Source: Bacilli bacterium (lineage in GTDB: Bacteria > Bacillota_I > Bacilli_A > ML615J-28 > CAG-313). Taken from it: a stretch of 64,000 nt of DNA. The translations under genes and the position numbers were made by a program. Below, piece by piece: positions 2,211 through 59,645 of the stretch. Numbering within the stretch: the stretch's first letter is position 1; each line of letters starts with the position of its first letter. A model generated the notes under the pieces. It had not been told where the DNA came from, searched no databases, and saw only the letters and a list, made by a program, of their open reading frames with translations. Location of the stretch: positions 620 to 64,619 of the forward strand of contig JAFTPH010000026.1 in the NCBI GenBank assembly GCA_017463365.1. Direction: 5' to 3'.

Positions 2211-4043
2211 TTAGTTTTTCTTTCTTAAGATGATAAATGCTAAAGAGATACAAGCAATTAATGAAGTTGTAAGAGTTAATAATTCTTTCTTACATCCTTC
2301 TTTTGCAGGAGCTTCAACTTTAATTTCTTCATAAAGAGCAGTAATTACTAAATCTTCTTCAACATCATCAAATTCTTTATCCCAACCAACAAAGTTATAT
2401 CCTTCAACACTTGGGGCTGTTGGTGCTGTTGCATCTTCCCCTTCTTTAACAGTTTCTTCTTTCAAGATGTTTCCGTCTTTATCTTTGAAAGTTACTGTGT
2501 ATTTGTTGATTAATAATTCTTCATTATTGATAATCTCAACTGTTTTAGTAATAGTTGTACCATCAAGTTTAGTAATAACAATATCGTAATAGTAGTTAGT
2601 ATCACTATAGTTAGCTCCTAAATCAAGTGAATAAATATTAGCAAGTTTAATTTTTCTTGATACTTCTTTAAGATTGCTTTCGTTATATAAGTTAACTTCT
2701 TTTCCAGTAACAGTGATTTTATCAACATATCCGTAGATATCAGAATTCCATACTAAAGTTGCTGTTTCTTTTTCAGCATCACGTTCAACTTTAAGAGATT
2801 TTAAGAAACTTTCTTCATTGTATTTTGAACTAACACCACGGCGATTTTTAATTTCTAAACTATATTGTTCATCACCCATATTATTGTACATCTTTAAAGT
2901 TAAACGAGAAGAAGTAACAGTAATGATGCATCCACCATAGTTTAAGTTTTGAACATAGTCCATACCATCATCGTTAGCTTTATATGTTTTATTACCAACA
3001 GCAGGACCAATTACATGAGTTACTCCTAAATCAGGATTTATTTCACCATCTAAACGAGTTTTTTGAACACAGAAGGCATGTTCATGTCCACTTAAAATAA
3101 TGTCAACCGCATATTCTTCAAAAATATCGCCAAAAGCTTGTTTCATACGTTTTGCATCACTTGAATAGTTACCACCAGTAATTAAACCTGCATGAATACC
3201 TACGATGATGAAATCAGCAGTGTTGTTTTCTAAAACTTCAGTAATCCAAGCGCGTTGTTCGTTAACATATTCATTTTTAATAGCATCAACCATTAAGAAT
3301 AAAATATTATTATAGTAGAAGTAGTATGATGAATTCATACGACCTTCAAATGAGTTTTTAGGGTTATTAAAATATTGATTGTAAATTTCTGGTGAATCAT
3401 AACCAGATGCGGCAGTAGTATAATATTCATGGTTTCCAGGGATTGTCGCATTAGGGAATGATTGTACTGATTTGAATTGGCTGAAATAACCATTCCATTG
3501 AGCTTCTTTACCAGCACGGTCTGTTACGTCACCTGTATTTAACATAAAAGCAATATTTGGATTAGCTTTTAATAAATTTTGGAAAACTGCTTCAACTTTA
3601 TCATAACCATTATCATATGTTTGAGAGTCAGTAATCCAAGCGAATGTTGTAACTGATTCATTTAAACCAGTATTAAATTTACAAATATCTGATTTTTCAC
3701 TACCAGCGATTACTTGATAATAGTAAGTTGTATATAATTTTAAACCTGATAAATTAACACTACAAACATAACGTTTTTCAAATGCTGGATAATCTCCTTT
3801 AACTTCACGTTCCCATTCGTGAACTTCAGGAGTTACTTTTGTGAATTTCTTTAAACTTGAATCTGTTCCATAAATAACATAGGAATCTGCATATCTTGTG
3901 TGATAATTAATTCCTATTTTATCCATTGTTTCCCCAGGAGCAGCGGTAATATTGGCAATACCAGCATACATTCCATTAGATGGGATAGAACTAATTAGAA
4001 AAATACTAATTAAAATACTAAAAAATGTCAATAATTTTTTCAT
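2211..4043 (-). CDS. Cell-surface calcineurin-like metallophosphoesterase (purple-acid-phosphatase-like) with a Flg_new-type repeat and a C-terminal membrane anchor
   Basis: 610 aa. N-terminal signal peptide. Metallophosphatase motifs GDVTDR...GNHEYY...GHEHAF. C-terminal 'GYNFVGWD' Listeria-Bacteroides (Flg_new) repeat and a hydrophobic C-terminal helix. Confidence 0.7.
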   Translation of the reverse strand: MKKLLTFFSILISIFLISSIPSNGMYAGIANITAAPGETMDKIGINYHTRYADSYVIYGTDSSLKKFTKVTPEVHEWEREVKGDYPAFEKRYVCSVNLSGLKLYTTYYYQVIAGSEKSDICKFNTGLNESVTTFAWITDSQTYDNGYDKVEAVFQNLLKANPNIAFMLNTGDVTDRAGKEAQWNGYFSQFKSVQSFPNATIPGNHEYYTTAASGYDSPEIYNQYFNNPKNSFEGRMNSSYYFYYNNILFLMVDAIKNEYVNEQRAWITEVLENNTADFIIVGIHAGLITGGNYSSDAKRMKQAFGDIFEEYAVDIILSGHEHAFCVQKTRLDGEINPDLGVTHVIGPAVGNKTYKANDDGMDYVQNLNYGGCIITVTSSRLTLKMYNNMGDEQYSLEIKNRRGVSSKYNEESFLKSLKVERDAEKETATLVWNSDIYGYVDKITVTGKEVNLYNESNLKEVSRKIKLANIYSLDLGANYSDTNYYYDIVITKLDGTTITKTVEIINNEELLINKYTVTFKDKDGNILKEETVKEGEDATAPTAPSVEGYNFVGWDKEFDDVEEDLVITALYEEIKVEAPAKEGCKKELLTLTTSLIACISLAFIILRKKN

Positions 4044-50743: not shown

Positions 50744-51307
50744 ATGGATAAAAGTCAAATTATTAATAACGTATCTAAATTATTAAATGAAAATAGGTTT
50801 GAAGAAGCTAAGATGCTTATTCAAAGTGAGTATCCTCATGAACATATAGAAATTGAAAAACGATCATATACTCTTAAACAGAAAATGACTCAATTTCTTA
50901 AAGATGGTTTCATAGATAGATATACTGGACAAAGACTTGTTAATCCAGGAATGTTAAAAGTTATAACTTACTATTGTCCAAAAGAATTTCCATATGATCC
51001 TCATTGGAAAATGACCAAAACTCATATTGCTTACTGGAATTTGATACCTACTATTGATCATATTTTTCCAATTGCATTAGGAGGTATTGATGATTCTAGT
51101 AATTGGGTTACTACATCAATGAAAAATAATTCTATAAAAAATAATTATTCATTAGAGGAAATAAACTGGCATTTACACGAAAGTGGAAATTTGGATGATT
51201 GGGATGGATTAACAAAGTTATTTATTGAGATAGTTGAAAAGAATAATGATTTACTAAAAGATTCATATATAAAAAGCTGGTATAAAATTTCTAAAGATTT
51301 GATTTAA
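50744..51307 (+). CDS. HNH-endonuclease-family protein
   Basis: IDHIFPIALGGIDDSSNWVTTSMKNNSIKNN resembles the HNH core (H-N...N). Confidence 0.55.
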   Translation: MDKSQIINNVSKLLNENRFEEAKMLIQSEYPHEHIEIEKRSYTLKQKMTQFLKDGFIDRYTGQRLVNPGMLKVITYYCPKEFPYDPHWKMTKTHIAYWNLIPTIDHIFPIALGGIDDSSNWVTTSMKNNSIKNNYSLEEINWHLHESGNLDDWDGLTKLFIEIVEKNNDLLKDSYIKSWYKISKDLI

Positions 51308-51476: not shown

Positions 51477-52574
51477 ATGAATTTAGGTTTAAGAATTAAA
51501 GAATTACGTATTGAACATGATTTAACTCAAGAAGATTTAGCCGAACAACTAGGAGTATCAATTCAAGCCATATCTAGATGGGAAAATAGTATTACATGTC
51601 CGGATATTTCCGTTTTACCAATACTAGCTAATATGTTTGATGTGACTGTTGATTATTTATTAGATGTAGATATTAAGAAAAAACAACAAGAAATCAATGA
51701 AATAGAGGCTAAATATAATAAGAATTGTAATGTTGGAAAAGTAGAAGATAATGAAAAATTATTGTTAGAAGGGTTAAGTAAATATCCTAATAATTGGGTA
51801 TTAAAATCATCTTTATTAGACACTTATTTTACTTATGTTTGTAGATATGAAAGAGATGATCCAAAATATCAAGAATATATAGACAAAACAATTAAATTAG
51901 GTAATGAAATATTAAATAAATGTGTTTTAGATAATAAAAGATATTTTGCTATGCAAATACTGGTATATACTTACAGATGGACTAATGAATTAGAAAAAGC
52001 CAAAGAAATTGTCAAAAAATTACCAAGTTTTTATGTAACTAATGATTGGTTATATCCAGAAGTTGTTACTGGGTTTGAAAGAATCAAAGCTGTTGAAAGA
52101 AATATAAATTCCATAGTAGAATTATTTTATAGTGCTTTAACATCAACATATGGAAGAAGAGAAGTAGGACTTAGAGCCAAAGAACTTTTAAAATTTAAAA
52201 CATTCTTAGATTTAGTATATGAAGATGGCGACTATGGATTTTATCACATAAGACTATTTGATTTATATTTTATGTGTGCTAGTGATCAAGCTCAAATAAA
52301 AAATAAAGATGAAACGCTAAAGTATTTAAATTTAGCTATTTATTATGGAGAAATTTTTGATAAAATAAAAGATGAAGGTAAAGTTATTAAACATACAAGT
52401 TTTTTAGTAGATTGTTTAGAAAACAATCCGAATAGTTGGACATTCTCAGGTGATTGTGTTGCTTTAAAAAGAGCAGTTGATTATTTAGAAAAGGATAAAT
52501 ATGATTTCTTGAGAGAAGATGAAGAGTTTAAAAAAATTAAAGAAGAGTTAATTAATAAATTGACAAATAAATAG
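51477..52574 (+). CDS. XRE-family HTH transcriptional regulator with C-terminal helical-repeat (TPR/RNPP- or Rgg-like) domain
   Basis: HTH MNLGLRIKELRIEHDLTQEDLAEQLGVSIQAISRWENS. ~300-aa C-terminal alpha-helical region. RBS AAGGAG. The 3' end is embedded in repeat copy 1. Confidence 0.8.
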   Translation: MNLGLRIKELRIEHDLTQEDLAEQLGVSIQAISRWENSITCPDISVLPILANMFDVTVDYLLDVDIKKKQQEINEIEAKYNKNCNVGKVEDNEKLLLEGLSKYPNNWVLKSSLLDTYFTYVCRYERDDPKYQEYIDKTIKLGNEILNKCVLDNKRYFAMQILVYTYRWTNELEKAKEIVKKLPSFYVTNDWLYPEVVTGFERIKAVERNINSIVELFYSALTSTYGRREVGLRAKELLKFKTFLDLVYEDGDYGFYHIRLFDLYFMCASDQAQIKNKDETLKYLNLAIYYGEIFDKIKDEGKVIKHTSFLVDCLENNPNSWTFSGDCVALKRAVDYLEKDKYDFLREDEEFKKIKEELINKLTNK

Positions 52575-52658
52575 AGATATTTTACACTAACTAAAGTATT
52601 GCTTGAGTTCATTCAAAAACCTCTTTATTGTTTTTGAAAGATAAGAATTATATAAATT
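52548..52658 (+). repeat. 111-bp direct repeat, copy 1 (regulator 3' end + promoter-like element + 9-bp inverted repeat)
   Basis: ~97% identical to 58759-58869 (4 mismatches in 111 bp). Contains TTGACA-17-TACACT and TTCAAAAAC-n9-GTTTTTGAA. Confidence 0.9.
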
Positions 52659-52725
52659 TTTTTAGATGAATAAAGTTTGTAAAATAATACTTAACTAATA
52701 AGTTCAAAATAAATAAACGAAATAC

Positions 52726-52754
52726 TTTACATTTATTATTTATTTTGATATAAT
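52726..52754 (+). promoter_or_regulatory. Near-consensus sigma-A promoter for the small peptide gene
   Basis: TTTACA (52726-31), 17-nt spacer, TATAAT (52749-54). GAAAGGAG RBS then ATG at 52798. Confidence 0.65.
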
Positions 52755-52797
52755 GACTTTAGCAAATATAAAAATTACTTGAAAGGAGTTGATTACT

Positions 52798-52863
52798 ATG
52801 AAAAATATAAATGAACATAAATTAGAAGTAATCAGTTTCTTTTGTGTAACTGTAGTTTGTTAA
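52798..52863 (+). CDS. Small peptide ORF (21 aa, MKNINEHKLEVISFFCVTVVC), a candidate signalling-peptide or RiPP-like precursor
   Basis: ATG 7 nt after GAAAGGAG. Consensus promoter upstream. Polar N-terminus and hydrophobic Cys-containing C-terminus ending in Cys. Hairpin with U-tract downstream (52896-52930). Located directly 3' of an RNPP/Rgg-like regulator and 5' of exporter genes. Not in the supplied ORF track because it is under 60 aa. Confidence 0.5.
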   Translation: MKNINEHKLEVISFFCVTVVC

Positions 52864-52895
52864 GTTTTATTAATTATAATATACTTTTAAAATTT

Positions 52896-52930
52896 AAACA
52901 CTTCTAATTTATAGGAGTGTTTTTTATTTG
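52896..52930 (+). terminator. Hairpin with U-tract between the peptide ORF and downstream genes (possible partial terminator/attenuator)
   Basis: AAACACT-tctaatttatagg-AGTGTTT followed by TTTTATTT. Confidence 0.5.
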
Positions 52931-52960
52931 CTAAATATTTAATTAGGAGATTAAAAGTAT

Positions 52961-54541
52961 ATGAATTTATTAAAAAATTATTTAGCTAAATTACATGCTC
53001 AAAATAAAAATAGAATTGATGAACTATATTTAGACAGGTTAAGTAAAATAGATGATTACAAAATATTAGAATATGAATTTTTAGGATTGAAATTTTGGTT
53101 TTTTGGAACATCTCATAGAAATCCTGAAAAACTTATTTTAAATATTGAAATTCCTAAAACATATATTAGTGATAATCTAAATACTGATAATGTAGTAGCA
53201 TTTGAACATTACGTTTTAAAAATTTTATATGAAGACGTTAATAAAATTAATGATGAATATTTTAACAAAAATAAGAGTACTAGAGAAAAGCCATATGTGG
53301 AGTCCCAAAAAACAAATGAAATTATAATTAAAAGAAATGGTATTACTTACGATTTTAAAAAGAAGGTATTTCATTATAAATTAATATTTGTTGTTCCACT
53401 TATAAATAATACTTCTATTAATGGTAAAAGTACTTTTAAGGCAATCAAAGAAATTATTTCTTTAGTATCAAAAAAATTAGAGTTTATTAACAAAGATGAA
53501 TTAAATAAAAATGTTGATATTTACTTAAAGCAACAAGAAATTAGAAGATACATTAGGGAAAATAATTTAGTTACGTTTATTGCTAATGATAGTATTTTAC
53601 CAAGAAAAGAAGGAACTAATAAACCATTAGAAGATGCAACTAAATTTATATCACCTAAGTCACTTGAAACATTAATCAAGTTAAATGATGGTACAAAGAT
53701 TTTAGGAATGGGAATTAAAAAAGGAATAACTGTTATTACTGGTGGTGGTTATTCGGGTAAAACTACTTTACTTGAAGCAATTGAAACGGGTGTATATGAT
53801 CATGAGTATGGGGATGGAAGAGAATATTGTATTACTGATGATTCTGCCATGAAGATTTGCGCTGAAGATGGTAGATATGTCACAAATACTGATATTTCAC
53901 CATTTTATAAGTATATTCCATCAAGTGAAGGGATTCATAACTTTTCAACGCAAGATGCAAGTGGAAGTATTTCACAAGCAGTAAATATTATAGAAGCAAT
54001 TAATTGTGAAAGTAAGTTACTTTTAATTGATGAAGATAGAAGTGCAACTAATTTTATGATAAGAGATTATAATATGCATTTAGTTGTGAAAAATGATCCA
54101 ATAATACCATTTACTAATAGGATTAAAGAAATCTATAATGATTATGACGCGTCAACGATATTAGTAATAGGTGGTTCAAGTGTATATTTGAATTATGCTG
54201 ATTGTGTAATTTTGTTAGAAGATTATTTGCCTAAAGATATAACTGGTTTTATTAAAGGATTAGATTTGATGAAAGTTGTAGAGGAGCCAGATAAGACAAA
54301 TTTTATATCAAAAAGAAAAATAGCTAATTTTAAATCAAAAGAAATGTTTAACTATTTTAATTTTGTTGCAAATGATAAAAGTAAAAATATTGTGATTGAT
54401 GAATATCAAGCTGATATCACGTTTATATCAACATTAATTTCAGATAGTCAAATAAACTATTTAGCTTATATAATGCAGTTAATACTATCTAGAAGTGAAT
54501 TTTGGGGTGATGATATTATTTATAGCATTATGTATAAATAA
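52961..54541 (+). CDS. Stand-alone 'ABC-class ATPase' protein (PF09818-like P-loop NTPase of unknown function)
   Basis: 526 aa, no TM. Walker A in the C-terminal half (GGGYSGKTTLLEAIETG) and Walker B-like LLLIDEDRSATNF. Long N-terminal non-ATPase region. RBS TTAGGAG. Confidence 0.6.
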   Translation: MNLLKNYLAKLHAQNKNRIDELYLDRLSKIDDYKILEYEFLGLKFWFFGTSHRNPEKLILNIEIPKTYISDNLNTDNVVAFEHYVLKILYEDVNKINDEYFNKNKSTREKPYVESQKTNEIIIKRNGITYDFKKKVFHYKLIFVVPLINNTSINGKSTFKAIKEIISLVSKKLEFINKDELNKNVDIYLKQQEIRRYIRENNLVTFIANDSILPRKEGTNKPLEDATKFISPKSLETLIKLNDGTKILGMGIKKGITVITGGGYSGKTTLLEAIETGVYDHEYGDGREYCITDDSAMKICAEDGRYVTNTDISPFYKYIPSSEGIHNFSTQDASGSISQAVNIIEAINCESKLLLIDEDRSATNFMIRDYNMHLVVKNDPIIPFTNRIKEIYNDYDASTILVIGGSSVYLNYADCVILLEDYLPKDITGFIKGLDLMKVVEEPDKTNFISKRKIANFKSKEMFNYFNFVANDKSKNIVIDEYQADITFISTLISDSQINYLAYIMQLILSRSEFWGDDIIYSIMYK

Positions 54542-54701
54542 TATTAAAATTTTAGATGAATCAATACAACAAATTATTTCACAGTATAATTTTAAGTGTG
54601 ATGTATGGTTTGACGATATACGTAAACAAGATATCATAAGTTGTATAAATAGATTAAGAGGAATTCGTTTTGAATTTATAAGTTAAAGGAGAGTGATACT
54701 G

Positions 54702-56495
54702 ATGAATTTAGATAAACCAAATATTATAAAAAACTTCTTTTACTCACTAAAGAAGATTTATAAAATTGATAAAATATTTGTTTTTGAGACTATAATACAT
54801 ACAATAATTTCTGCATTAGTTGTTTTTATGTATCCATATATATTAAAGATGGCAATAGAAGCTATTGAACAAAATTTAAGTTTTAAAGAATTAATACTAA
54901 AAGTACTTATTGTTGTAGTAAGTGTAATGATTTTAGTTTTCTTTAATCAGGCATGTTGGAGAGATCAATCTTATAGAGCGCGAAAATTATCTGCGCTATT
55001 TACAAGAGAATATCATTTAAACTCATTAAAAACTGATTATGAGAAATTTGAACAACCAGAATCACAAGATGCTTTTGAAAAAGGATCACGAGCACTAGGA
55101 ACAAGAAGTGGATTTATAGGTTTATATACAAATATGTTTACAACTATTAGTAAAGTAATTACCTTTATAATTGGTTGTGGAATAATACTAAGAGTAAGTA
55201 TTTGGTTGATAGTAATAATTGTTTTATTAGCAATTATAAAATTATTATTAACAAGTTATAATACTAAAAAAGAAAAAACAAACTTTCATGATAAAACACC
55301 TGGTATATGGAGAAAAATTAGTTATACAAATAATATATCAAAAAATTTGACAATAGGAAAAGATTTACGTATTTATGAAATGGATAAGTTTATAGATATG
55401 GAAAGACAAAAAACTATTGATGAATATATGAAACTTTATAAAAAAGAAGAAATTAGATCTAATATATTAGGCACAATAATTAATTTAATACATATATTAG
55501 ATGAAGTTGCATTATATTCATTTATGCTTTATGAAGTAATTAACAATAATATGAGTATTGCTGATTTTACTTTTATTATTGCATCAATTAGAACATTATC
55601 AAGATCGTTGACAGTTATAATAAATAATTTTAGCAATAACTTATCATATAGTTTACAGGTTAATGATTATCGAAAATTTGAAACATTAGATTTATCATTT
55701 AATGGTGATACTAAACCTCTTGTAGCAGATGAGGTAGAAATTGAATTTAAAAATGTAAGCTATAGCTACTATATGCAAGAAGGATATACACTAAAGAATA
55801 TCTCGTTTAAAATTAAGAAAGGCGAACGAATAGCACTTGTTGGTCATAATGGTGCAGGGAAAACAACTCTAATAAAACTTATTTGTGGATTTTATCATCC
55901 AACTGAAGGAGAAATCCTTATTAATGGAGTAAATATAAATGAGATAGATAGAGAAAGCTTAATAAAACTAATTGCTCCTGTTTTCCAAGATTCTAATCAT
56001 TATGCGGTCAGCATAAAAGAAAACATTGCTATGGAGACAATTGGGAATATAGATGATGAAAAATTATATATGTCACTTAATCTCGCTGGCTTATTACAAA
56101 AAATAGAAAGTTTAAAAAATGGTGTTGATACAATTATAACTCGTGATATGGATGATACAGGTGTTGAATTATCAGGTGGAGAGAGTCAAAAATTATCGAT
56201 TGCAAGAGCTATTTACAAGAATGCTCCATTTGTAATTTTAGATGAACCAACTAGTGCACTTGATCCTATAGCAGAATCTGAATTGTATATGAATTTGAAT
56301 AAAATTATTAATAATCATTCAGCTATATTTATTTCTCATAGACTTTCATCAACAAAATTTTGTGACAGAATATTCTTCTTAGAAAAAGGAGAATTGCTTG
56401 AAGTAGGCACACATAATGAATTAATGAGTATAGATAGTGAATATAAGAAACTATTTAATATGCAAGCAGAATATTATAAGGAGGTAGATGAATAA
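54702..56495 (+). CDS. ABC transporter permease/ATP-binding protein (half-transporter, exporter type), subunit 1
   Basis: N-terminal 6-TM domain. Walker A GHNGAGKTT, signature LSGGESQK, Walker B ILDEPTSALD, H-loop FISHRL. Confidence 0.85.
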   Translation: MNLDKPNIIKNFFYSLKKIYKIDKIFVFETIIHTIISALVVFMYPYILKMAIEAIEQNLSFKELILKVLIVVVSVMILVFFNQACWRDQSYRARKLSALFTREYHLNSLKTDYEKFEQPESQDAFEKGSRALGTRSGFIGLYTNMFTTISKVITFIIGCGIILRVSIWLIVIIVLLAIIKLLLTSYNTKKEKTNFHDKTPGIWRKISYTNNISKNLTIGKDLRIYEMDKFIDMERQKTIDEYMKLYKKEEIRSNILGTIINLIHILDEVALYSFMLYEVINNNMSIADFTFIIASIRTLSRSLTVIINNFSNNLSYSLQVNDYRKFETLDLSFNGDTKPLVADEVEIEFKNVSYSYYMQEGYTLKNISFKIKKGERIALVGHNGAGKTTLIKLICGFYHPTEGEILINGVNINEIDRESLIKLIAPVFQDSNHYAVSIKENIAMETIGNIDDEKLYMSLNLAGLLQKIESLKNGVDTIITRDMDDTGVELSGGESQKLSIARAIYKNAPFVILDEPTSALDPIAESELYMNLNKIINNHSAIFISHRLSSTKFCDRIFFLEKGELLEVGTHNELMSIDSEYKKLFNMQAEYYKEVDE

Positions 56496-58267
56496 TGAAA
56501 CTAAAAACAATTAAGAGAAATCTAAAATATTTTATTCCTTTACTTCTAAAGATTAGTCCAATGTCAATTATTATAATGGTATTAGTGGCATTTATAAATT
56601 CAATTAGTAATATAGCCTGGGTCGTGTTTCCAAAGTTGATATTAGATGAACTTTTTTATACAAAAAATTATGATAAATTATTCATTATTGTTATTGCATT
56701 TATTTTAATTCAATTAATATGGAGAGTATTAGGCGATATATTTAATAGTATGAATTATTATATTATACGAAAAGCAGATTTTAAAATAGATAAATTATTT
56801 AACGAAAAGATTGCTCATATTGATTACTTTCATATAGAAGATCCACAATTTAATGATGAATTAAGTTATGCGAAAAATTGTTTAAGCCAATATAGTAATG
56901 GGATTTATTCGGTAACTTGGGCAATTAAAGAATTTGTTGAAAATATAATATCAATATTAAGTGTTGTTGGAATAATTATAGCAAGTGGAGAATTCTTTAT
57001 TATACTTGTAACATTGATAGGTGTGATATTAAATACAATCTTTTATGGAAAATTTCAAAAAATAGACGAAGAGTTTAATAATGGAACAGTTCGATTTTTT
57101 AGAAAACAATGGTATTATGGCAATAGTATGATGGCATTTAGAAGTCAAAAGAATTTGAGGATGTATAGTGCAGATAATTTGATAAAAAACAGAAGTGATG
57201 AAGTAAATAATGATCTATTTAAAATAGAAGAAGAAACAAACAAAAAAAGAAATAAAGTAAGTTTATTTGAAACTAGTTTTAGCTATTTATTTACTACTTT
57301 TATAACAATAATAATTCTTGCATTTGCGGTATATTATAAAAATTTAGAATTAACTGTTTTTACAATGCTATATGGTGCAGTTCAAACACTAGATAATGGA
57401 ATTGCAAATTTAATATATTCATCAAAAAAATATTATCAAGATTGTGTTTATCAAGAAAACTTTATTAATTTAATGGAAATTGAATCTATATTTAAAGATG
57501 GTAAAAAAGCTATAGAAAATATAGAAACAATTGAATTTAAGAATGTTAGTTTCAAGTATCCAAGATGTGATTATTATGTACTCAAAAACTTAAGTTTCAA
57601 AATTGATTCTAAAGAAAAAATATCATTAGTAGGTTTAAATGGTAGTGGTAAAACAACGATAATCAAATTGATTTGTAGATTCTTTGATGTTAATGAAGGA
57701 GAAATATTAATCAATGGAGAAAACATAAAGTTATATAAATATGAAGACTATATGAAATGTTTAGCCATTGTATTTCAAGATTTTAAAATTATATCATTTA
57801 GTGTTAAAAACAATATTGCAATACTTGATGAAAATAAAGAAAAACTATATGATGTTTTAAAAAGAAGTGAAGCATTAGAAAGAATAAATGAATTACCTGA
57901 TAAAGAAAATACTTATATTAATAAATGGTTTGATAAAAAAGGTGTTGAATTCTCTGGTGGAGAACTTCAAAAATTTGCTTTGGCTAGAGCATTATATAAA
58001 GATGCAGATTTTGTTGTTTTAGATGAGCCAACAAGTGCGTTAGACCCTGTGAGTGAGTCAAAAATCTATTATCATTTCAAAGATGTTGTGGGAGAAAAAT
58101 TGACATTATTTATTTCACATAGGCTATCAAGTTGTATATTTAGTGATAAAATACTAGTACTTGATGGATATAATATTGTTGAAACTGGAACTCATGAAGA
58201 ACTTATGAAAAATAAAGAAGGCTTGTATAGAAAAATGTTTATGGCTCAAGCAGAATATTATAATTAG
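56495..58267 (+). CDS. ABC transporter permease/ATP-binding protein (half-transporter), subunit 2
   Basis: Start overlaps the previous stop (ATGA). Strong RBS AAGGAGG. Walker A GLNGSGKTT, signature FSGGELQK, Walker B VLDEPTSALD. Confidence 0.85.
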   Translation: MKLKTIKRNLKYFIPLLLKISPMSIIIMVLVAFINSISNIAWVVFPKLILDELFYTKNYDKLFIIVIAFILIQLIWRVLGDIFNSMNYYIIRKADFKIDKLFNEKIAHIDYFHIEDPQFNDELSYAKNCLSQYSNGIYSVTWAIKEFVENIISILSVVGIIIASGEFFIILVTLIGVILNTIFYGKFQKIDEEFNNGTVRFFRKQWYYGNSMMAFRSQKNLRMYSADNLIKNRSDEVNNDLFKIEEETNKKRNKVSLFETSFSYLFTTFITIIILAFAVYYKNLELTVFTMLYGAVQTLDNGIANLIYSSKKYYQDCVYQENFINLMEIESIFKDGKKAIENIETIEFKNVSFKYPRCDYYVLKNLSFKIDSKEKISLVGLNGSGKTTIIKLICRFFDVNEGEILINGENIKLYKYEDYMKCLAIVFQDFKIISFSVKNNIAILDENKEKLYDVLKRSEALERINELPDKENTYINKWFDKKGVEFSGGELQKFALARALYKDADFVVLDEPTSALDPVSESKIYYHFKDVVGEKLTLFISHRLSSCIFSDKILVLDGYNIVETGTHEELMKNKEGLYRKMFMAQAEYYN

Positions 58268-58498
58268 TTAACTATAAATTTTTGTGCTATACTATTAAAG
58301 TAAAAATGATATTAGGAGGTGCATTTATATAATTTATAGAACGTTAATTGTGTTAGTTATGATATTATTTATGATACCTCTTGTAGAGGGTAATCGAGAT
58401 AAAGAAGATATAATAGATTTTTAAATAATATAAAAAAAGGTAAGATTATTAAATATCAAAATATGTAATTAATATAAATAGTATTAAAATTTATAAAA

Positions 58499-58540
58499 TT
58501 AAGAAATGTAACTATCTTAACTGGTAGTTACATTTCTTAA
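58499..58540. repeat. Perfect 16-bp inverted repeat with 10-bp spacer in a 640-bp non-coding region
   Basis: TTAAGAAATGTAACTA-tcttaactgg-TAGTTACATTTCTTAA. Confidence 0.8.
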
Positions 58541-58758
58541 TTCTCTATTAATCTTAAAATAACTGGAAGTAAAAATGTAATGATAATTAAGATTTATAAT
58601 ATATTTCTTAATTATTAACTAATTTTATATCATTTTTAGGAGTAAAATAAAAAATAGGTATATTTAAAAATCATTAAAATAGGTGTAAATCTTTAAATTA
58701 AGAGAAAAATTATCTTGTTTATAGTATTATAAGTGTTTTCTATTACATACAAACAATA

Positions 58759-58869
58759 TTAATTAATAAATTGACAAATAAATAGAGATATTTTATACTA
58801 ACTAAAGTAGTGCTTGAGTTCATTCAAAAACCTCTTTATTGTTTTTGAAAGATAAGTATTATATAATTT
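58759..58869 (+). repeat. 111-bp direct repeat, copy 2 (carries a pseudo-3'-end ...ILINKLTNK* of a regulator gene)
   Basis: ~97% identical to 52548-52658. Contains TTGACA-17-TATACT (better -10 than copy 1) and the same 9-bp inverted repeat. Lies ~40 bp upstream of the ATG at 58911. Confidence 0.9.
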
Positions 58870-58910
58870 AAGTGTAAATGATCATTTAAATAAAATATAA
58901 GGAGAATAAT

Positions 58911-59645
58911 ATGGCTTTTAACGAACAAATACAAAAACTAAGAAAAGAATGTGGAATGACTCAAAATGAACTTGCTGAAAAACTATTTATTAGTTATCAA
59001 GCAGTAAGTCAATGGGAAAATGGTAATACAAAACCTGATATTGACTTATTACCAAAACTTGCTGAAATATTTAATGTATCAATTGATGAATTATTTGGTA
59101 GAAAAACTGTTAAATGTAATTTAACTAATGTAGAAGAAAATACTTTATATTTTGTTATTGCAACCTCAGATGAAATTATGGGAATAATGGATTTAGAAGA
59201 ATTAAAGAAAAAGCAAAATGAAGTAAAAGTTACTATTGAAGGAGATACTTTAAATGTTGTAAGTTCATCTACTGTAACTATAAAAGGTAATGTTCAAGGT
59301 AATGTTGATGCCAATCAAGATGTTAATACTTCAGCTATTGGTGGTAATGTTAGAGCAGGTTGTGATATTAATTGTGCTAATATTACAGGGAATGCTAGCG
59401 CAGGTTGTGATATTTCTTGTGCGAATATTAGTGGAAACGTTGCTGCTGGATGCGAACTTAATTGTTCGGATATTAGAGGAAATGTTTCAGTAGGTGGGAA
59501 TCTAACTTGTGAAAAAATTGAGGCTGATACTGTTAAAGCTGGCGGTATAATTTATTGTAATAAAGAAATAAAAGCTAATAAAATAGAAACTAATAATACA
59601 GTAGAGAGTAAAAATAAAACAAGTAAAATTACTATTGAAATGTAA
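58911..59645 (+). CDS. XRE-family HTH protein fused to a C-terminal Cys-rich 15-residue-repeat (beta-helix/bactofilin-DUF4097-like) domain
   Basis: HTH LRKECGMTQNELAEKLFISYQAVSQWENG. C-terminal tandem repeats GNVRAGCDINCANIT / GNASAGCDISCANIS / GNVAAGCELNCSDIR / GNVSVGGNLTCEKIE. RBS TAAGGAG. Confidence 0.75.
   Translation: MAFNEQIQKLRKECGMTQNELAEKLFISYQAVSQWENGNTKPDIDLLPKLAEIFNVSIDELFGRKTVKCNLTNVEENTLYFVIATSDEIMGIMDLEELKKKQNEVKVTIEGDTLNVVSSSTVTIKGNVQGNVDANQDVNTSAIGGNVRAGCDINCANITGNASAGCDISCANISGNVAAGCELNCSDIRGNVSVGGNLTCEKIEADTVKAGGIIYCNKEIKANKIETNNTVESKNKTSKITIEM

Follow-up and report, generated by a model that had tools for sequence, protein, structure and literature searches.

In Bacillus subtilis, ribosome-mediated transcription attenuation at the bmrB leader has been shown experimentally to govern bmrCD, which encodes a heterodimeric multidrug ATP-binding cassette (ABC) exporter, and the system is induced by antibiotics targeting protein synthesis (PMC4191407). 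Antibiotic-sensing attenuators also precede genes for soluble ribosome-rescue factors, as is the case with rli80-hflXr in Listeria, vmlR and the leaders of other antibiotic resistance (ARE) ABC-F genes (PMC6310831, PMC9226507). For rli80-hflXr, attenuation has likewise been demonstrated experimentally (PMC6310831). Here we describe a leader of comparable logic, located upstream of a gene for an ABC-class ATPase of Pfam family PF09818 (COG3044) in a 64,000 nucleotide (nt) stretch of DNA from a Bacilli bacterium (GenBank assembly GCA_017463365.1, contig JAFTPH010000026.1, positions 620 to 64,619 of the forward strand). This whole stretch is referred to below as the window; coordinates are counted from its first base, and the leader elements, the ATPase and exporter genes and the regulator gene upstream of the leader lie on its + strand.

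The one characterised member of the ATPase family, MRB1590 (also KRBP72) of Trypanosoma brucei, is a slow ATPase and forms a dimer in which the N-domains make up a basic RNA-binding pore (PMC4538832). Its ATPase activity is required for RNA editing to get past a stem-loop (PMC11754742), and the process that it serves, kinetoplastid mitochondrial RNA editing, is lacking in bacteria. Full-text literature on PF09818, COG3044 or 'ATPase of the ABC class' consisted of trypanosome work and incidental mentions only and contained no function for a bacterial member, in agreement with an earlier note on this locus, made from the sequence alone, which had listed the family as having no assigned function.

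The ATPase itself is not new, being an ordinary and, in the window, damaged member of a structurally solved family; the useful result is its context. In gut Firmicutes, nearly every PF09818 copy examined was found behind the same type of leader, consisting of an upstream open reading frame (uORF), a hairpin sequestering the Shine-Dalgarno (SD) sequence and a terminator. This leader provides an experimental handle on the function of bacterial PF09818 proteins and points to control by translation status. It also corrects the attractive but mistaken view that the locus is a cassette for peptide export. Short open reading frames (ORFs) beside ABC pumps can, in AT-rich genomes, represent leaders of attenuators. 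Taken as a whole, the explanation that we favour, and consider somewhat probable, is that of an operon under ribosome-dependent attenuation with the ATPase as its primary effector.

The resemblance to bmrB-bmrCD, which is drawn at the level of logic and implies no claim of homology, comprises a small leader ORF, alternative stem-loops and a terminator upstream of two adjacent ABC half-transporter genes. Unlike in B. subtilis, a PF09818 ATPase gene stands between leader and exporters in the window, the leader is tied phylogenetically to the ATPase rather than to the pumps, and the terminator lies 32 nt past the stop codon of the leader ORF, whereas that of bmrB is situated within the leader coding region. 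With rli80-hflXr and vmlR, the locus has in common the anti-antiterminator/antiterminator/terminator logic, a uORF overlapping the anti-antiterminator and a soluble nucleoside triphosphatase (NTPase) as the gene product. The leader in the window differs from these in carrying neither RLR nor another known arrest motif, and in that its anti-antiterminator is formed by the SD and start region of the uORF itself. The ATPase is neither an ABC-F protein nor an HflX, having a single nucleotide-binding domain (NBD) and no linker or arm, and a ribosomal role for it would be pure conjecture.

Anatomy, conservation and specificity of the leader

The leader in the window is approximately 170 nt long and is preceded by a promoter-like site with an extended -10 element (TTTACA, 17 nt, TGnTATAAT; 52726..52754), recognised by consensus match only (11 of 12 positions). 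The leader SD (AAAGGAG at 52782) and the spacer following it (AAAGGAGTTGATTACT, 52782..52797) constitute the 5′ arm of a predicted helix, P1, the putative anti-antiterminator. Next comes the leader ORF of 21 codons (52798..52863), which encodes MKNINEHKLEVISFFCVTVVC and was taken for a peptide gene in the earlier note. Codons V11-F15 of this frame (AGTAATCAGTTTCTTT, 52827..52842) provide the 3′ arm of P1 and pair with the leader's own SD and spacer (-16.7 kcal/mol, z = -4.8). The candidate antiterminator segment, codons K8-V11 (AAATTAGAAGT, 52819..52829), is exactly reverse-complementary to positions 52900..52910, which comprise the 5′ arm of the terminator together with loop bases; the corresponding duplex has an energy of -12.1 kcal/mol (z of about -4 compared to shuffled sequences). 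The intrinsic terminator (52896..52927) is made up of an 11 bp stem (AAACACTTCTA/TAGGAGTGTTT), an ATTTA loop and a T-run, and was the sole terminator-like site in 52400..54800, where 0.2 would be expected by chance. It is followed by the SD of the ATPase gene and its ATG at 52961.

Conservation was assessed by scanning one genome per species with a profile of 23 sequences, which produced 525 relatives. The best 79 loci of these were retained and joined by six loci from exact-protein look-ups (L003, too short for a full neighbourhood, among them), resulting in a set of 85 loci with ATPases 35-95% identical to that of the window. Sources of the related loci were genomes of uncultured gut Bacilli and of an Erysipelotrichaceae-like type; at 35-46% identity, they were Lachnospiraceae, Ruminococcus, Butyrivibrio and further Clostridia. 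A short ORF (17-31 codons) with a strong SD was present 130-270 nt upstream of the ATPase gene in approximately 60 of the 85 loci. The uORF and a terminator (hairpin and T-run, located between the uORF and the gene) occurred together in 65 of the 85 sequences, representing 53 distinct leaders, and in these the frame of 17-31 codons was always closed before the terminator.

The P1 duplex between the SD and the uORF had z-scores below -2, relative to shuffled sequences, in 92% of 50 distinct leaders. Pairs were counted in an alignment of 45 leaders, with the helix extended by hand from an RNAalifold core. In this alignment, 83.8% of P1 cells were paired, compared to 30-61% with the partner slid, and two-sided changes were seen in 47 cells versus 15.7 in shuffles, a level reached in none of 500 shuffles. 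Examples of such covariation include GATT/AATC being replaced by GGCT/AGCT, GGTC/GACC or TTTTT/AAAAA. RNAalifold run on the leader alignment recovered just seven P1 pairs, with weak energy.

The ATG of the uORF was invariant in the 45 aligned leaders despite variation in the bases that it pairs with. Within the clade of the window, AAA TTA GAA GTA ATC was invariant at all three codon positions, and uORF codons 5-7 and 13-20 changed non-synonymously; across clades, leader peptides were unrelated except in the stretch encoding the P1 3′ arm. Since conservation of the uORF tracks RNA pairing, yet its ATG is invariant and its frame open, the ORF appears to be translated for regulation and not for its product, and is most likely a regulatory leader reading frame rather than a source of a peptide processed by the ATPase. 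The antiterminator segment always abutted the P1 3′ arm. The sequences of this segment and of the terminator arm differed by clade with complementarity kept (UUAGAAGU/ACUUCUAA, AUCUGAUGC/GCAUCCGAU, UCAGAUG/CAUCUGA and GUAUGCUC/GAGCAUAC), and z-scores for this complementarity ranged from -3.7 to -6.9 in the window's clade.

A covariance model built on the leader element (R1) was searched against both strands of 1.07 Mb of sequence. All 65 matches with E < 1e-6 were on the coding strand and directly upstream of a PF09818 gene, and no comparable match was found elsewhere in the 1.07 Mb. The sole non-canonical match with E < 1e-3 was located directly upstream of a true leader (locus L072, 6549..6635 on the - strand; 29.9 bits, E = 6e-4). 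Comparison with Rfam gave chance-level matches only in the leaders of the window and L013, and none reaching the gathering score at the leaders of eight loci; with no Rfam match, the leader appears to be undescribed so far.

Two further arrangements were observed. In L008 (5124..8725) and L009, the leader MKNINIYKLEVIGFFHVTVFC was followed by a divergent 565 amino acid (aa) PF09818 paralogue (with altered motifs, GGAFSGKST and LILIEED), a 574 aa orthologue and an exporter pair, in what is a tandem duplication. In clostridial leaders (L013 117..345, L036, L037, L045 and L055), codons of the uORF in the region of ACGATTYT form pairs with ARAATCGTC immediately past the terminator, and the latter segment overlaps ATCGTCCTTC, which pairs with the ATPase gene's own ribosome-binding site (GAAGGACGAT). 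These extra clostridial pairings suggest a second, translational layer of control.

A putative switch responding to translation arrest

From this arrangement, we infer the following direction of switching. By default, the leader SD and start region would pair with codons 11-15 to form P1, the antiterminator codons 8-11 would lose out, the terminator at 52896..52927 would form and transcription would stop. Under inducing conditions, a ribosome held at the beginning of the frame (on the start or a few codons after it) or at its final codons would block P1; this would leave codons 8-11 free to pair with the terminator 5′ arm, and RNA polymerase would read into the ATPase and exporter genes. Because a ribosome positioned on the uORF would block P1 and switch the unit on, the signal sensed would be translation arrest, with ribosome-targeting antibiotics and a starvation-type block of initiation as candidate causes, and the operon is probably induced in this way. 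As it is the ATPase, and not the exporters, that the leader accompanies across Firmicutes, the ATPase would be the primary regulated effector, the regulon of which drug-type exporters may have joined in the window's clade.

The effect of a ribosome was simulated by folding nascent RNA up to the terminator loop in the presence of a 31 nt ribosome footprint. With the footprint on codons 1-4 of the leader ORF in the window, the probability of the terminator 5′ arm being already paired upstream increased from 0.45 to 0.83, and a footprint on codons 17-20 also raised it, to about 0.8. Across 50 leaders, the early-codon footprint caused a rise of more than 0.2 in 23 cases and a fall in one.

A number of observations weigh against the proposed scheme. 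The switch is deduced from sequence and folding only. The P1 3′ arm and the antiterminator have only 3 nt in common in the window, and their mutual exclusion would not be absolute. Antiterminator complementarity was statistically clear (z < -2) in only 32-34% of leaders, and some clades seem to use another antiterminator partner. When the complete terminator was included in equilibrium folding, with a footprint placed at each codon in turn, it won almost everywhere, and the model therefore relies on co-transcriptional kinetics. Neither a common known arrest motif nor a single-amino-acid run was found in the leader peptides, the N-termini of which were compared by eye with the macrolide arrest motifs RLR and +x+ and gave no consistent match. 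With respect to the ATPase as effector, the RNA-binding activity of KRBP72 is dispensable for its function (PMC11754742), the N-domain of the window protein cannot be aligned with MRB1590 by sequence (the profile alignment begins only at residue 164), and the gene is frameshifted in the window, where the activity of its product may be lost.

Nearly all conserved uORF positions coincide with RNA pairings, which would also be expected if the leader were mainly a ligand- or protein-binding RNA switch, mediating for instance autoregulation by an RNA-binding ATPase, with the uORF playing a secondary part. Leader and gene family are linked strictly one to one, as is typically seen with autoregulatory leaders and riboswitches, the further long-range pairings of clostridial leaders also mask the SD of the ATPase gene, and MRB1590 does bind RNA. 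However, a strong SD, an invariant ATG and a 17-31 codon frame ending before the terminator were features of all 53 distinct leaders. P1 encloses the variable uORF only, no conserved unpaired pocket or multi-helix junction like those of riboswitch aptamers was present, and Rfam returned no match, all of which makes such a switch improbable in our estimation.

Under ribosome-dependent attenuation, it is further conceivable, if doubtful, that Firmicutes PF09818 ATPases are translation-stress or antibiotic-response effectors acting on RNA or ribosomes. Their family-specific attenuator, previously undescribed, would respond to ribosome stalling on a uORF that supplies the anti-antiterminator through its own ribosome-binding site, and multidrug-type exporters would have been recruited twice in the window's clade. 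If true, a large family of unknown function, PF09818, would rank beside ARE ABC-F and HflXr as a third type of soluble NTPase under induction by stalled ribosomes.

The PF09818 ATPase and its frameshift

The gene downstream of the leader was described in the earlier note as a 526 aa ORF resembling PF09818, the 'predicted ATPase of the ABC class', with Walker A and Walker B-like motifs. Both the ORF (52961..54541, 526 codons from ATG to a premature TAA) and the family assignment were confirmed, the latter by a hidden Markov model search in which residues 178-434 matched PF09818 ABC_ATPase with E = 9.2e-100 and 333.7 bits (cut-off 23.2). An entry identical to the 526 aa product exists at NCBI (MBQ8292457.1, 'hypothetical protein [Bacilli bacterium]') and derives from a metagenome-assembled genome. 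Walker A (GGGYSGKTT, residues 261-269; 53741..53767), an ABC-signature-like motif (ASGSISQA, residues 333-340; 53957..53980) and Walker B (LLLIDED, residues 353-359; 54017..54037) were invariant in 23 homologues. The NCBIfam collection gave no family-level ATPase model, chance matches far under cut-off being the only ones obtained, and no PADLOC anti-phage defence family was assigned to the ATPase with its reading frame repaired (see below).

According to the earlier note, the N-terminal region had no recognisable fold. This holds at the level of Pfam, as no model matched residues 1-177 (search of residues 1-180, E up to 10), but not for the protein modelled over its whole length, which matches both MRB1590 (PDB 4YIX, 4YIY and 4YJ1) and a Vibrio vulnificus structure, 5D6A. 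The sequence itself detected these PDB relatives with E = 4e-65 (5D6A) and E = 7e-60 (MRB1590). An AlphaFold2 model of the repaired 574 aa protein (predicted local distance difference test 82.7, predicted template modelling score 0.87) could be superposed over its whole length (595-625 columns) on 4YJ1, 4YIX and 5D6A with template modelling (TM) scores of 0.82/0.78, 0.77/0.77 and 0.77/0.81, respectively, compared to only about 0.23 for ordinary ABC NBDs. The modelled ATPase is composed of three domains (N-domain, ABC-fold core and C-domain) as in the solved members, and the fold predicted for its N-terminus is known from the MRB1590 and 5D6A structures.

The window ATPase thus has the same motifs and the same three-domain predicted fold as MRB1590 and 5D6A, and a C-terminal R..D...NR.R motif in common with 5D6A. 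Sequence identity to these proteins is only ~24%, and no positions of the window protein could be assigned to Arg199 and Arg200, which bind RNA in MRB1590. The Firmicutes members surveyed also differ in carrying a dedicated leader, a putative attenuator. By homology with MRB1590/KRBP72, the ATPase is probably an ATP-driven dimer that acts on RNA or on a complex of RNA and protein.

While the ORF exists as described earlier, it represents the gene in truncated form as a result of a frameshift. Homologues have lengths of 570-576 aa, and the window ORF stops 48 residues early. Alignment with the DNA of three contigs encoding a 90% identical protein (P0001) located one extra base after TATAAA, at ~54539, which creates the TAA. 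The conserved C-terminal domain continues out of frame for 48 codons in the +1 frame (54540..54686, NIKILDESIQQ...DIRKQDIISCINRLRGIRFEFIS). This missing tail (NIKILDESIQQIISQYNFKCDVWFDDIRKQDIISCINRLRGIRFEFIS; in short form NIKILDESIQQ...CINRLRGIRFEFIS) closely matches the C-terminus of P0001, holds the family-invariant residues D557 and R564, and aligns with the C-terminal R-P-x-D...N-R-x-R segment of 5D6A; its match to PF21117 (MRB1590_C) was weak (E = 0.19). An intact frame of 574 codons was present in the closest genome, L006 (95% identical).

The truncated 526 aa product is recorded on six contigs from approximately three samples. Given this recurrence of the allele, the frameshift is reproducible rather than an isolated assembly error, and it is probably a real lesion of this lineage. 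The out-of-frame tail is undecayed, being free of further stops and close to intact relatives, and the lesion should therefore be recent or compensated, for example by +1 slippage at AAA-TAA. The product in the window is probably truncated and impaired, unless rare +1 slippage restores the frame. The site itself (54533..54545) reads TAT AAA TAA T, and one possibility is that Lys-tRNA slips from AAA to AAT and regains the conserved frame; no evident SD-like stimulator was seen upstream of it. The ATPase cluster also contains members of 325 aa, which suggests further truncated variants.

A related explanation, compatible with ribosome-dependent attenuation and possible, if on the unlikely side, is that the ATPase is a pseudogene in this strain, and that the unit now only expresses the exporters under an inherited attenuator. 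This explanation fits the absence of 48 residues, some of them invariant, from the product in more than one assembly and sample, and also the shorter variants in the cluster. The intact tail, close to that of relatives, speaks instead for a recent or compensated lesion, and a sequencing artefact common to assemblies of the same reads could conceivably account for the extra base.

Exporters and other neighbouring genes

Two ABC exporter half-transporter genes follow the ATPase. The first, encoding a membrane domain and an NBD (54702..56495), likely starts at ATG 54702 behind AGGAGAG, the mechanical ORF running from GTG 54693; the second (56495..58267) begins at a start codon overlapping the stop of the first (56495). 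The gap between the stop of the repaired ATPase frame (54686) and the ATG of exporter 1 (54702) is 16 nt, and no terminator-like site was found in 54500..59000, the ATPase-exporter junction included. Because gene junctions are short or overlapping and no internal terminator is present, the best reading of the sequence is that the leader, the ATPase and both exporter genes would be transcribed as one unit from the promoter-like site near 52726. Pfam searches revealed no C39 peptidase domain in either exporter and an NBD in each. Only generic MsbA-like NCBIfam models were matched, below cut-off, and PADLOC matches of exporter and helix-turn-helix (HTH) type reflected generic NBD or HTH similarity.

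Clustering of all genes within 5 kb of the ATPase across the 85 loci placed ABC exporters in 17 of them (11 in the window's clade), and no other family in more than seven. Exporters directly 3′ of the ATPase were confined to the window's clade (at least 64% identity; L001-L003 and L005-L011). L004 and L049 (63-67% identity) were devoid of them, and among 66 more distant loci (35-46% identity) a comparable pair was present only in L048, starting ~450 nt downstream. Two different exporter pairs occur behind 90% identical ATPases, one being 66-99% identical to that of the window and the other ~31%. The latter was seen in L001 (2078..5651), L010 and L011, indicating that exporters were exchanged, or recruited twice, behind the same gene. 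Placement of the gene is non-random in the window's clade, but the exporter link is not a family property.

These data bear on the proposal of the earlier note that the ATPase, placed between a peptide gene and two ABC exporter genes, serves in peptide processing or as an exporter accessory. The short upstream ORF and the two half-transporter genes are indeed there, but the supposed peptide gene is most likely a leader ORF. A neighbourhood survey, which the note had suggested, showed recurrence of the short ORF in ~60 loci, independently of exporters but in every case accompanied by an SD-sequestering helix and an intrinsic terminator, and no family-wide exporter linkage. In favour of an accessory or processing role, with the 21 aa peptide itself being exported, the order of peptide ORF, ATPase and two exporters is kept in L001-L003 and L005-L011, and the occurrence of distinct exporter pairs after closely similar ATPases might reflect selection for an exporter partner. 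On the other hand, the uORF and terminator persist in nearly all loci, including those without exporters, the intrinsic terminator stands between the peptide ORF and the ATPase gene, and the peptide sequence varies freely except at RNA pairings. The peptide MKNINEHKLEVISFFCVTVVC has no double-glycine (GG or GA) site or signal motif, and the exporters come with their own NBDs and lack a C39 peptidase domain. We consider this role very improbable, and retain the leader-controlled operon as the preferred explanation.

Upstream of the leader and outside the conserved unit, positions 51477..52574 encode a 365 aa HTH_3 regulator with a long C-terminal domain that received no assignment. With an HTH protein 223 nt upstream of a ~21 aa peptide with a hydrophobic C-terminus, and ABC exporters adjoining, the layout resembles rgg/shp and other quorum sensing systems of the Rgg/SHP and RRNPP type, in which case the regulator would sense the hydrophobic peptide after its export by the ABC pumps. 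However, the regulator formed a singleton cluster in a collection of 15 billion proteins, had no counterpart upstream of this leader in L005, L006 and L007, the closest relatives, and matched no TPR model. The peptide ORF, with which it is not conserved, belongs to a terminator-containing leader in many genomes, and the leader family precedes PF09818 genes in Lachnospiraceae, Ruminococcus and Butyrivibrio without any such regulator. Quorum sensing is accordingly the explanation to which we give least credence.

The HTH_3 gene at 51477..52574 looks like a lineage-specific insertion between the leader and an HNH-like gene. The latter (50744..51307) encodes a 187 aa protein with weak, sub-threshold matches to HNH endonucleases (E ~1e-3), and its position is kept in L005 and L085. 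On the other side of the unit, the exporters are followed, from 58268 onward, by a 644 nt stretch without any ORF longer than 32 aa, and then by a gene for another HTH_3 protein (58911..59645), the C-terminal half of which consists of repeats G-N-[VA]-x-A-G-C-[DE]-[IL]-x-C-x-[ND]-I matching no assigned Pfam family. In L017, a T-box leader unrelated to the element described here (3460..3726; Rfam RF00230, 102.7 bits) was identified ~3 kb upstream of the PF09818 gene.

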